Assembly (NCBI GenBank): GCA_964016885.1
Contig: OZ024741.1
Coordinates: forward strand, 273,234,001-273,298,000
Origin: Eledone cirrhosa
Taxonomy: Eukaryota
Direction of reading: 5' to 3'
Length of the DNA: 64,000 nucleotides
Positions 19,269 through 63,486 of this stretch are shown here, piece by piece. A model generated the notes under the pieces. The model was not told the origin of the DNA and did not search any database. It worked only from the letters and a program-made list of their open reading frames with translations. Numbering within the stretch: the stretch's first letter is position 1; each line of letters opens with the position of its first letter. Position numbers and translations under genes: made by a program.

Positions 19269-19330
19269 ATGGGTGTTGGACTAACTAAACGGAAAACCCT
19301 TACTATCAATGAACGGAACAACCTATCGAG
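19269..19330 (+). CDS. Putative coding exon 1 of a small SH2-only protein (MGVGLTKRKTLTINERNNLS+AG)
   Basis: ATG at 19269 in non-repetitive sequence; 20 codons + 2 nt, ending at the donor TCGAG|gtatgc. Phase 2 matches the acceptor at 53373 (AG+G = Arg). MGxxxTK fits the N-myristoylation consensus. The link across a 34-kb intron is inferred. Confidence 0.6.
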
Positions 19331-19644
19331 GTATGCACTTTATGTATTGTTTATAATCCTTTCATTTACTTTCCTCTAGAACCAGATCTGCCCTTCTTTA
19401 ACCCTTCCCCCTTGTTTTTTTCGCTAATTAATTTTGTTTTTATCGTATTTAAAAAAAAAGATATTTCCATCCTTGTATAACTTTATAAAACATAGTTGAC
19501 ATACTAAAACCATAGCTTTATTATCACTACATAAATAACAACAACAAATATAACTTTTATAAATATATTATTCTTATATTTTTCTTATTCGTATCAGTGG
19601 TTTTACTTGCTGGTAAATGTTTTTATCATTACACCTGTTTCAAT

Positions 19645-20465
19645 GGCGGTGGTCTGGCATAATAGGTAGAGTGCCGGACGCAATGCTTCGTAGTTCAAAA
19701 CCCGGCCGAGGTTAGCTTTACCTTTCATCCTAACGGGGGGAAGGGGTCGATAAAATAAAGAACCAGTAATTCGCTGGGGTCGATTTAATCGACTTTCACC
19801 TTCTCCCAAATTGTTGGCCTTGTGCCTATAGTAGAAATAATAATTATTATTATCATAACCTGTCGAGGTTAGCTTTGCTTTTCATTCACACAGGGGTTAA
19901 TATAATAAAGTACCAGTGATGCACTGGGGTCAATTTAATCGACTTTCTTCCCCCCTCCCTTCAAAAAAATTGTTGGCCTTGTGCCTAAATCAGGCGGTGG
20001 ATTGGCAGTATCGGTAGAGGGTCGGACACCATGCTTTGATGCATAGAGTTACGGCCCTTGCCATTCTGAGTTCAAATCCCGCCGAGGTTAACTTTGCCTT
20101 TCATCCTTACGGGGTCGATAAAATAAAGTACCAGTAATACCCTGGATAATTGCTGGCCTTGTGCCAAAAGTAGAAACCATTATTACTGGCAGTATCGGTA
20201 GAGTGTCGGACACCATGCTTTGCAGCATAGAGTTACGGCCCTTTATGGTCTGAGTTCAAATCCCGCCGAGGTTAACTTTGCCTTTCATCCTTACGGGGTT
20301 GATAAAATAAAATACCAGTAACGCACTGGGGTCAATTTAACCGACTTTCCCCTCCCCTCAAATTACTGGCCTTGTACCTATACTAGAAATCATTATTACG
20401 CATGTTTCAGTACCAGTAATGCACTGAGACAATTGCTGGCCTTGTGTCGTAAGTAGAAACAATTA
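19645..20465 (+). mobile_element. Head-to-tail cluster of the major tRNA-derived SINE (about 4 copies plus a tail fragment)
   Basis: A-box-like TGGCAGTATCGG, B-box GAGTTCAAATCC, conserved core and tail GGCCTTGTGCCAAAAGTAGAAAC. Other copies at ~1260-1420(-), 6736-6807(+, 14-bp TSD), 18490-18580(-), 22721-22900(+), 33070-33257(-), 33807-34005(+), 40503-40800(-), 41600-41740(-), 42185-42335(-), 46684-46872(+), 53895-54045(-), 61035-61525(-). Confidence 0.9.
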
Positions 20466-21782
20466 CTACACATGTCTCGGAGCCAGGTGTAACAGTAATT
20501 AAGATAAAATTAAATTAAGATTGGTTAGAATTTTTCAGGTAGAATATATATTTTTTCTATTTTATTCTTATGTGTTTTGAAGAAAAAAATACGCCGGGAC
20601 TAGTTATCTGTGGTTCGCCTTCATCTTAGAACTTCACATCGTCTCGGAGATGGATGTGATAGGAAATATTTATCATTTTGGCGACAGTGGGATGGAGTGT
20701 AGGGACGTACCACAGTCTTTAAGGGAACTTTAGTCTATTATATCGTACCCCACCCACCGGTACTTTTTATTTGATTTGTTTTAATACATATATGTATATA
20801 TAAATGAAAGGATTACAAAGGAGAATATATACTGTCGGAACATGTTTATATAAAAGCACCCACATACGTTCTTATACTTTACTTATATATGTATTTTAAT
20901 TATGTCTCATATAAAATAATACAACTGGCTATCCGCAAAATACGTATAGTTAACACCCTAAACGTAAAATTGAGATTATACTAAGGTATATCCTAATGTT
21001 TGTTGAGTGAGACGGAAGCCGGTCGGAGTATTGCTTAAAGCTTTCTCTGTTAATGTATTAAATATATATATATATATATATATATATATATATATATATA
21101 TTTAGCTCTGTAACTTACACAGAGCACTCTTCACTCCTATGACTTTTTCAATTTTCAACAGAAACTTCAATACTTATATATATATATATATATATATATA
21201 TATATATATATTTGTTTGTTGGTATATATATATATATATGTATACACATACGCATATATATATATATATATATGTATATTAAAGTCTGGTACGTATGTTT
21301 ATCGAAGTCTGTCGAACAGCGAAGTTACAGGATAAATGTAAACACATACATGGATACACACACACAGGTGTGTATATATATATGCGCGTGTGTGTATATG
21401 TGTATGTGTGTGTATGTGTATATATATGTATGTGTGTATATATGTATGTGTGTAAATATGTGTGTGTGTGTGTATATATATATATGTGTGTGTGTGTGTA
21501 TATATATATATGTGCGTGTGTAAATGTATATATATATATGTGTGTGTGTATATATATATATGTGCGCGTGTAACTGTGTGTGTATATATATATATATGTG
21601 TGTGTGTGCGTGTGTACATGTATATATATATGGGTGATTTGGACACCCTGCAGGACAAAAAACAATACCTGACAAAGGGCGGAAGAACTGATAAGAGTCG
21701 ACGGCCATCCAAAAATGTGTAAATATGTATATACACATGTACATATGTGTGTGTATGTATATATACGTGTGTATATGCCTTG

Positions 21783-22360
21783 GGTGTCAGGGAGAGGCAT
21801 GTACCTCTGTAGGGGGGTCAGCCATGCCCTTTTCAAGACAGCTCGTCCTACATTAGGTCCCACCTGACACTCAGTTCTCACCTGTGGCCCCAAGAAGCTG
21901 TAGCATGCGATAGCGGCCACACCCTGGTAAACCGCCTTGGCTGGCGGGTCGAACCAGATTGAGGGTAGCCGGACGGGTCTGAACCCCCCCCCCCCCGGTG
22001 AGTTAGATAGGGGATGCCTGCTCCTGCATGCTTAGACTGGACCCGGCGGAGTGAGTGGGGGAGGACAACATCGTCCCAATGGTCACGAAGGCGACGGCAG
22101 AAAGCGGTGTGGAGCGCTAGGGCACGGCAAGACACTACAGACGTCGTGGCCATCCACTGCAGCCAAGGAAGTCCCTGGGCGTGATGGTCCTCCGTACCAC
22201 CGGATTCTGGCTTCTGCGGCCGAGTGAGTGGGACCATCACTGTGCCTGGTCCTCCCACTATAAACCTTTTCCGCACAGGTTTCTTCTTTAGCGTGTGCCC
22301 ACGACAGACGGGAGCTAAATTAAGGAAGATGTCATCATCGTTCACGATGGACAACCAAGG
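21783..22360 (+). mobile_element. GC-rich non-autonomous RTE-derived element
   Basis: GC-rich island with no credible ORF, ending in gtcatcatcgttcacgatggacaacca, which resembles RTE/BovB-type 3' ends (recalled, not searched). Confidence 0.55.
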
Positions 22361-61593: not shown

Positions 61594-61735
61594 AGCCGAT
61601 GGGATGCTGCGACATCATGTGATAACACAGAGTGATGGGTTGTATTATCTAGACAAACAACCCTATCCTTACCTTGATTCTATCGTACTTTACCACAAGA
61701 AACATAAACTTCAAGGCATCAAATTAACACAACAG
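61594..61735 (+). CDS. SH2 exon, C-terminal half of the domain (ADGMLRHHVITQSDGLYYLDKQPYPYLDSIVLYHKKHKLQGIKLTQQ)
   Basis: Acceptor ttttttatttcag|A, donor CAG|gtaaat, 142 nt, in frame with the previous exon. HHVI...DGLYYL...Y..LDSIVLYH...L matches SH2 betaD to alphaB and betaG. Confidence 0.88.
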
Positions 61736-62599
61736 GTAAATATTTAACTCTTTCATTATGATGAAAAACATCAGTCAAAGGGTGGAGGAACTCAGTTTTC
61801 TTTTGTTGCTTTTTGTGTGTAGTGAGAGACTCCTAGACTTCATTAAGACATCCCTCTAGGTGAAGGTCACTCTGATATAAAATCTGTGACTTCGTTTGTA
61901 TCCAATGATCATGATCATCATCATCATCATCATCATTGTTTAACATCTATCTTCCACGCTAGCATGGGTTTAGACGGTAATTGTTCCACTTGAGGCAAGA
62001 TTGGTCGGGTGACTGTGTCTCGCTCGTATAGGACTATCTGGCAGGTTTTCTACGGCTGGGTGCCCTTCCTAACACCAACCACATTTACAGTGTGGACTGG
62101 GAGCTTTACCGATTCTAACCCTTTCATTACCACATTTCTAATAAAAGACAATGTCTATGTCATTAACATATTTCTATTGAAAGACACTGCTTATGTCTTT
62201 AAAATAATTTTGAACATAATCAAGAATTTGGAGGGATTTAGTTACATTACTTTTTCATTATTAAAATGATATTTGGAACATAACTTAAAGTTTCTTAGAT
62301 AAAATTATAGGGACTTGTTGTTTATAAATGTGTTGTTTAGTCTGAGATCATCCCTAATCTAAAACACCCGTGATCAAAGGTATTCCATATAAATTAGCTG
62401 TGCTGGTACCACAATAAAATGCACTTAGTACACTCTGTAAAGTGGTTGACATTAAGAAGGGCATCCAGTCGTAAAAGCCATGCCAAATTATGGAATGTAT
62501 GCACATGATGTGGTCCTCTGATCATGTATTGCCATGTAACCATGATGGACCTGTCCAACCCATGAAAGCATAGAAATTATTTGTATGACAATGATGATG

Positions 62600-63285
62600 A
62601 CGATGATCAAGATATATGTTAACGATGATGATGACCATGATGATGTGACCACGATGATGATGACCATGATGATGATATGATGTGATGTGATATGACAAGA
62701 TGTGCTGTGACAAGATGTGGTGTGATGTGGTGTGACATGATGTGGTGTGACATGATGTGGTGCGATATGTGATGTGATGACGTGATGTGACATGACATGT
62801 GATGTGACATGGTGTGATGTGATGACATGATGTGATGTGGTGTGACATGATGTGATGTGGTGTGCCAAGATGTGACGTGACAGGATGTGGTGTGATGTAA
62901 TGATATGGTGTGGTGTGACATGATGTGATGACATGTGGTGTGATGTGGTGTGACATGATGTGATGTGGTGTGATGGGACGTGATGTGACATGTGATGTGG
63001 TGTGACATGATGTGGTGTCATATGGTGTATGACTTGATATTACATATGTGATGTGATTTGTGGTGTGTTGTGATGATGATGCTATGATGATGATGATATG
63101 ATGATGATGCTGTGATGTGATGTAATGACGATGATGATGAAATGATGTTATAATGATAACAACAATAATAATATGAGAAGATGGTGATGTTATGTGATGA
63201 TGACGATATGAGTATGTGATGATGTAATGATGATAATGATATGAGATGATAATGATACAATGATATGATGCTGATATGATATGAC
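62600..63285. repeat. (GATGT)n/(GAT)n degenerate satellite
   Basis: Seen directly; continues from a (GAT)n retroelement tail. Confidence 0.9.
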
Positions 63286-63360
63286 GGTTTAGCTGAAAAA
63301 GTTTACTAAATAACAATAACCAGGGATATTGATATTTTCAATAATTTAATCTATTTTCAG

Positions 63361-63486
63361 GCTCCGTTGAGTGCAAGGGTGGTAAAATGTTTTGCTTCAA
63401 GGTTTGTTGCCAATAATGGAAATATTCTGCCAAAAAATGGTGAAGACAAAAACAAAATGCTTGATGAGACATTATCTCGTTTGTAA
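63361..63486 (+). CDS. Terminal coding exon (APLSARVVKCFASRFVANNGNILPKNGEDKNKMLDETLSRL*)
   Basis: Acceptor ctattttcag|GCT in phase 0, matching the previous donor; 41 codons then TAA; unique sequence follows as a likely 3'UTR. Confidence 0.75.
   Translation, partial: APLSARVVKCFASRFVANNGNILPKNGEDKNKMLDETLSRL

Follow-up and report, generated by a model that had tools for sequence, protein, structure and literature searches.

A spliced gene in Eledone cirrhosa encodes a member of an ancient SH2-only protein family in which the phosphotyrosine-binding arginine is replaced

SH2 domains bind phosphotyrosine through an arginine, betaB5, of their FLVRES motif. Can a protein that consists of one SH2 domain lacking this arginine be a genuine gene product, and what might such a protein do? 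The question is raised by a 64,000-nucleotide stretch of Eledone cirrhosa DNA (the window), in which an earlier note, made from the letters alone, described a hidden gene at 19269..63486 of the + strand for a putatively myristoylated, 148-residue SH2-only protein. All features described below lie on this strand.

The gene is real and spliced, and its 148-residue product has a single SH2 domain. When we recomputed the coordinates, four exons at 19269-63486, with AG acceptors and GT donors, joined into an open frame of 447 nucleotides (148 residues and a stop) in which codon 47 is TAT (53449-53451), a tyrosine, as the earlier note had it. Coding exon 1 (19269..19330) carries a predicted N-myristoylation signal (Gly2, Thr6, Lys7) and a basic patch, KRK. 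Exon 2 (53373..53489) encodes betaA, alphaA, betaB and betaC of the SH2 domain, with Tyr47-Lys48-Asp49 (53449..53457) where FLVRES has Arg-Glu-Ser (betaB5-7), and exon 3 (61594..61735) supplies betaD to betaG and includes P-[YF]-x-Y-L-[DE]-S-I, a motif of the family. Exon 4 (63361..63486) encodes a predicted amphipathic helix (residues 112-125), a flexible tail and the stop; the C-terminal Ser-Arg-Leu (63475..63483) is a candidate PDZ ligand or, on a rival reading, a type 1 peroxisomal targeting signal (PTS1). The GT-AG introns measure 34,042 nucleotides (intron 1, 19331..53372, repeat-rich, with a 200-N gap at 51627-51826), 8,104 nucleotides (intron 2, 53490..61593) and 1,625 nucleotides (intron 3, 61736..63360). 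The gene is indeed hidden from the open reading frame (ORF) track, which shows just exon 2, in an ORF (53005-53493) that combines it with a microsatellite; elsewhere it is not, as its octopus orthologues are already in RefSeq and UniRef.

A loose filter returned 22 possible first exons (ATGGG to a donor) in the 53 kb upstream, so the sequence by itself did not secure exon 1. A contig from the public sequencing run X4 (1,782 nucleotides, depth 61.9) carries all four exons joined at the proposed splice sites (19330^53373, 53489^61594 and 61735^63361). One loose end matches exon 1 over its last 30 coding letters, which fixes that exon; the other matches the start of exon 3. The contig skips intron 1, so no exon derives from the N gap in this transcript, and it skips 61736-63360 (GT..AG) exactly. 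Over exon 2 it has zero differing letters, with the TAT codon unchanged. X1 has nothing over exon 2 that could serve as a DNA control for editing, and since contigs drop rare variants, minor A-to-I editing could escape. The intron 3 joint occurs in X4 only; in runs X1-X3, the contigs continue through the introns. The library type of X4 is not on record, no listed run is labeled as RNA, and we infer the RNA nature of X4 from the splicing; this is one contig, and X1-X4 come from one study.

The same contig delimits the untranslated regions (UTRs). The 5′ UTR spans at least 31 nucleotides (19238..19268), its start being placed by a 91-nucleotide loose end that, if colinear, consists of 60 coding nucleotides plus 31 more. 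An in-frame TAA lies at 19173, and no ATG in the same frame precedes the start codon after it. Two short out-of-frame upstream ORFs (19225-19269), the first with a stop that overlaps the start codon, sit 5′ of the inferred contig end. The 3′ UTR (63487..64000) continues about 790 nucleotides past the window end, as the contig covers 63358-64000 and 790 further letters.

Orthologues share the ends of this product. A search with exon 3 retrieved three proteins, only one of them named (Octopus bimaculoides), and the orthologues in three named octopuses have the same length and N terminus, with 123-127 identical of 147-148 residues (those of O. sinensis and O. vulgaris are 147-148 residues long). 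The records XP_052828945, XP_029645179, CAI9733592, XP_021338935, XP_042905248, XP_076304034 and XP_019641428 belong to orthologues or close homologues; their automatic names are "uncharacterized" or "SH2 domain-containing", and they give neither a family name nor a function. In its own genome the gene appears to be single-copy, as far as exon searches reach: exons 2 and 3 found just this locus, its tandem copies and one weak match (E 5.4).

Could the 148 residues nevertheless be only part, or an erroneous join, of a larger multidomain protein, or the product of a decaying pseudogene? The 34-kb first intron with its N gap would leave room for this, as would an oyster protein (P0094, Crassostrea virginica) in which the family domain is fused to a C-type lectin. 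However, the lectin begins directly after the usual DTHL end, and P0094 is probably a merged gene model. The X4 contig runs over all four exons and both UTRs, without other upstream exons, an N-gap exon or a larger protein; orthologue ends are identical and conservation is strong. We therefore regard this alternative as highly improbable.

To place the protein, we searched 1.84 billion representatives with a family profile of 12 mollusc sequences and obtained 39 matches at E ≤ 0.001. Named members come from cephalopods, gastropods, a sea slug, bivalves, a chiton, spiders (with two paralogues), a scorpion, a horseshoe crab and amphioxus, the last scoring 94.9 bits (E 4.4e-22) against a profile built without amphioxus. 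The family is far wider than the earlier note, which proposed a conservation check across molluscs, had recognized: it reaches chelicerates and amphioxus, and both the tyrosine and the Met-Gly (MG) start are widely kept. Since protostomes and amphioxus both have it, the family would have originated before the bilaterian split. No vertebrate, insect or nematode name occurs among the named matches; many matches are unnamed and the profiles lean to molluscs and spiders, and we take the pattern as an apparent absence, not as proof of loss.

For residue counts, 55 aligned rows were reduced to 33 at <90% core identity and, after two outliers were dropped, to 31 representatives. Left out were P0034 and P0050 (repeat noise), P0057, P0059, P0061, P0062 and P0063 (other SH2 proteins), P0058 and P0060, the frame-damaged P0033, and fragments. 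The 31 representatives are mutually related, not independent trials, so the expected counts given below overstate significance.

By fold, the conserved part of the protein is predicted to be an SH2 domain, with a central antiparallel sheet and two flanking helices. Modeling of the O. sinensis orthologue with 55 sequences gave a mean predicted local distance difference test score (pLDDT) of 77, with about 90 over residues 31-100, and an extra helix at 112-125. In a wide structural search, all 50 listed matches were SH2-containing chains (Z 14.2 to 9.9), the best listed being the Nck1 SH2 domain (Z 14.2, root-mean-square deviation 2.5 Å over 92 residues). None of them stood out as a likely parent lineage. 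The nearest domains by sequence were those of VAV2 and PLCg1 (E 1.6e-06). Against Pfam PF00017 (gathering score, 21 bits), the octopus orthologues scored 19 bits (E 0.0014-0.0016), and 13 of 29 members matched Pfam SH2 at E ≤ 0.1 (best, 6.8e-06); a Pfam scan of the single window exons gave no match. A first model from 12 sequences (pLDDT 50), which had SOCS matches on top, was dropped for the 55-sequence model. Membership in the SOCS/CIS group was rejected, as no SOCS_box was found in 12 and 29 members, and SOCS proteins rank 44 and lower with the good model. Scans found no SH3 match in 29 members, where about 20 residues precede the SH2 domain, and no PTB match in the members scanned. Structure prediction thus bears out the SH2 identity read from the letters, and with orthologues that have the same ends and no larger multidomain form, the SH2-only organization stands.

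Is the pocket arginine truly replaced? In profile alignments with PLCg1, VAV2 and a canonical FLVRES domain, Tyr47 aligned without gaps to the FLVR arginine. Position betaB5 is Tyr in 30 of the 31 representatives and Phe in the remaining one, never Arg. At betaB7, where SH2 domains usually have a serine that binds phosphate, all 31 have Asp. Position betaB6 varies (K 9, R 9, E 11, V 1, I 1), and betaC3 is mostly aromatic (Tyr in 22/31). A gapped single-sequence alignment had allowed a shifted register with Lys/Arg48 as the pocket arginine; we rejected it because the profile alignments contain no gaps and 11/31 have Glu at position 48. The betaA tryptophan, also reported missing, would correspond to Ile22, counting back from alphaA2. 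As the betaB5 tyrosine is held from octopus to spider to amphioxus, the change reflects selection rather than decay. Loss of the betaB5 arginine is described as costing about 1,000-fold in affinity (PMC7530234), and canonical phosphotyrosine binding has probably been lost in this family.

Two features of the rim of the pocket count against that conclusion, as domains that bind phosphotyrosine would be expected to keep them: betaD4 is His in 31/31, and alphaA2 or betaD6 is basic in 30/31 (alphaA2 basic in 22/31, betaD6 Arg in 18/31). The window protein has Lys29, His67 and Val69 at alphaA2, betaD4 and betaD6. Cephalopods keep the alphaA2 Lys and have lost the betaD6 Arg, most gastropods show the reverse, and bivalves keep both. 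Because of these retained residues, which the earlier note overlooked, phosphotyrosine could still be read non-canonically, through alphaA2, betaD4, betaD6 and the BC loop. A precedent is the C-terminal "FLVR-unique" SH2 domain of p120RasGAP (fold Z 13.2), which has a pocket partly blocked by Tyr, an Asp nearby and basic betaD residues, and is reported to bind phosphotyrosine through betaD4/betaD6 (PMC7530234). However, p120RasGAP keeps the betaB5 arginine, whereas the family lacks it and has His at betaD4; both alphaA2 and betaD6 are basic in only 10/31, betaD6 is non-basic in cephalopods and chelicerates, and the invariant betaB7 Asp occupies the usual site of the phosphate-binding serine. 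We consider non-canonical phosphotyrosine reading unlikely. The terms phosphotyrosine-independent, adaptor and decoy, which the earlier note applied, nonetheless keep the standing of inferences.

In a tree of SH2 cores, the members grouped together on a long stem (95/97), with subgroups for cephalopods, bivalves and chelicerates. Placed within the family, though on a very long branch, was P0063, a receptor-like EGF/SH2 protein that has a betaB5 Tyr of its own. We rejected it as a member, since it scored 31 bits, like canonical SH2 domains, against 115-132 for members (most of which were in that profile), and read its placement as long-branch attraction. At betaB5, P0063 and P0061, which are SH2 proteins outside the family, have Tyr or Trp, and loss of this arginine seems to have arisen more than once. 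P0058 and P0060 are SH2-only proteins of 271-290 residues that start with MG and bear Cys; their betaB5 residue is Ser and their betaB7 residue Asp. At 44 bits they score between the family and canonical domains and are a possible sister group. An Atlas cluster of 255-residue, largely cnidarian SH2 proteins came second with both queries and serves as a lead only.

We next consider the N terminus. An MG start was found within the first 25 residues in 26/31 representatives (at residue 1 in 21), and the pattern MGxxx[STA] likewise in 26/31. Among these 26, position 6 is Ser or Thr in 24, Cys occurs at positions 3-7 in 13, and Asp or Glu at positions 2-7 in none. The window protein begins MGxxxT-K, as do the octopus RefSeq proteins, and the myristoylation consensus is given as GXXXS/T with a preference for Lys7 (PMC2133112). 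Less favorable are the 5/31 members without an MG start, which we read as putatively truncated gene models, and the 5/26 in which MG lies downstream of the annotated start. With both set against the pattern, N-myristoylation of Gly2 is very likely. Of the Src-like anchor of MGxxxT-K plus KRK that the earlier note proposed, the myristoylation-type start extends across the family, whereas KRK is confined to cephalopods and 13/26 have the Cys at positions 3-7 instead.

The earlier reader also overlooked a conserved C-terminal motif. Tails range from about 25 to 240 residues and otherwise differ in sequence, yet 21/31 end in x-[RH]-[LVM] (0.4 expected from composition) and 15/31 fit the class I PDZ pattern x-[ST]-x-[LVI] (1.3 expected). 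Oyster DTHL and Pinctada DTYL are the tetrapeptides through which podocalyxin and EPI64 are reported to bind NHERF/EBP50 (PMC7408282, PMC2185518), and the NHERF-optimal ligand is given as D-[ST]-[RY]-L within class I (PMC2185518). Docking of the tail to a PDZ domain is thus reasonably likely on the strength of these patterns. Several observations pull the other way: the window tail fits the general class I pattern with Leu replacing the Asp optimal for NHERF at -3; the gastropod endings ARL, QRL and LRL lack the class I Ser or Thr; and 10/31 lack x-[RH]-[LVM], including amphioxus, chiton, limpet and abalone proteins.

The PTS1 pattern is [SAC][KRH][LM], and the C-terminal tripeptide might instead place the protein at or in peroxisomes. 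Strict PTS1 endings (SRL, SHL, ARL) occur in 9/31 (0.1 expected), and position -1 is mostly Arg or His. Yet SKL ends none of the 31, the spider SHV and SHA and Pinctada TYL endings are better explained as PDZ patterns, acidic residues lie just upstream in several tails, and no SH2 protein with an N-acyl group is known to us from the matrix of peroxisomes. Peroxisomal targeting is accordingly improbable.

Between the SH2 domain and the tail lies a basic amphipathic helix (63373-63414, residues 112-125), with the highest moment in the protein (0.67) and confidently placed in the model. The helix, the single domain and the lipid anchor would suit a membrane decoy, or a module that binds lipid, whose SH2 cleft holds no peptide and whose tail is incidental; lipid binding by SH2 domains is reportedly the topic of a review (PMC8152464). 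However, the helix is conserved in molluscs and not in chelicerates or amphioxus, while P83, Y86 and S89, which form a family-specific betaF-alphaB patch, are each present in 31/31 and, with the recurrent tail motif, point to specific partners. We find a decoy or lipid module quite unlikely.

On balance we slightly favor a model, built on these sequence patterns, in which the protein is an N-acylated, SH2-only membrane adaptor that holds a partner without tyrosine phosphorylation and is likely tied to a PDZ scaffold. N-myristoyltransferase would add myristate to Gly2, and a second anchor would be provided by the basic patch in cephalopods or, in many other members, by a palmitoylated Cys. Tyr at betaB5, Asp at betaB7 and the mostly aromatic betaC3 would fill the pocket, and the basic rim residues could accept an acidic side chain, as in JAK/TYK2. 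The conserved betaF-alphaB patch may be a partner surface or a core replacement for the missing betaA Trp. A constitutive partner would be bound in the cleft or on this patch, and the tail would dock in a PDZ domain of the NHERF/EBP50 type. A bolder version, which we hold only tentatively and consider somewhat less likely to be right than wrong, is that of an ancestral-bilaterian SH2-only family that molluscs, chelicerates and amphioxus have retained and that vertebrates and insects have lost. Its Tyr-x-Asp would act as a built-in mimic that plugs the phosphotyrosine pocket, making the protein a constitutive lipid-to-PDZ adaptor.

How does such a protein compare with known SH2 proteins? RIN2 and SH2D5 carry their SH2 domains within multidomain proteins. 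The betaB5 arginine is also replaced in TYK2 (His), RIN2 (His) and SH2D5 (Trp), listed as the three Arg-less domains among >120 in humans (PMC7530234). The same source describes JAK/TYK2 SH2 domains as binding Glu in place of phosphotyrosine, and the TYK2 domain as binding receptors without it; PMC9783222 agrees with this account. The family differs from all three: its SH2 domain is the only domain, is accompanied by an acylation signal, and has Tyr at betaB5 together with Asp at betaB7. SH2D5 combines its Trp with a PTB domain, for which the family members scanned gave no match. SAP and EAT-2 (SH2D1A/B) likewise consist of one SH2 domain and a short tail (fold Z 12.3), SAP-like clusters are among the top-ranked ones in a comparison of features, and SAP binds unphosphorylated peptides; however, SAP retains and uses its FLVR arginine and shares 17% identity, and SAP and EAT-2 have no N-acyl signal. 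SLAP and SLAP2 are myristoylated SH2 adaptors with a shared fold (Z 13.1), but they have an SH3 domain and a canonical pocket, and the members scanned have no SH3. On our reading, the family resembles a JAK/TYK2-like domain in a SAP-sized, SLAP-anchored frame. The earlier note did not recognize this architecture; an Arg-less SH2 domain as such has human precedents in RIN2, TYK2 and SH2D5.

Two further elements lie within the gene. A 73-bp tandem array of 4.9 copies (53438..53791) duplicates the donor of exon 2 along with the 3′ half of the exon; three extra donor copies retain GT and the last copy has AT. The X4 contig uses the first donor, and read-through past it meets an immediate stop. Intron 2 contains a broken Penelope-like retroelement (56823-58289), with reverse transcriptase (E 0.0015) and GIY-YIG (E 1.5e-06) fragments in separate frames.

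A full-text literature search found no description of the family; subscription papers, supplements and the SH2 surveys (Liu et al. 2011; Liu and Nash 2012) were outside its scope and could list it. No paper naming five of the family accessions was found, and the portions of PMC11593052 on unnamed sea star SH2 transcripts mention neither the arginine nor myristoylation. This is an ancient, real family, uncharacterized though annotated in octopuses. It stands alone without the arginine, where the 3 of >120 human SH2 domains that lack it all belong to larger proteins, and its small size, about 150 residues, makes it convenient for studying the role of an SH2 domain in the absence of phosphotyrosine. 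The apparent absence from vertebrates, insects and nematodes would explain why the family has been overlooked and, if true, would mean that a branch of SH2 signaling is invisible in the usual model organisms.

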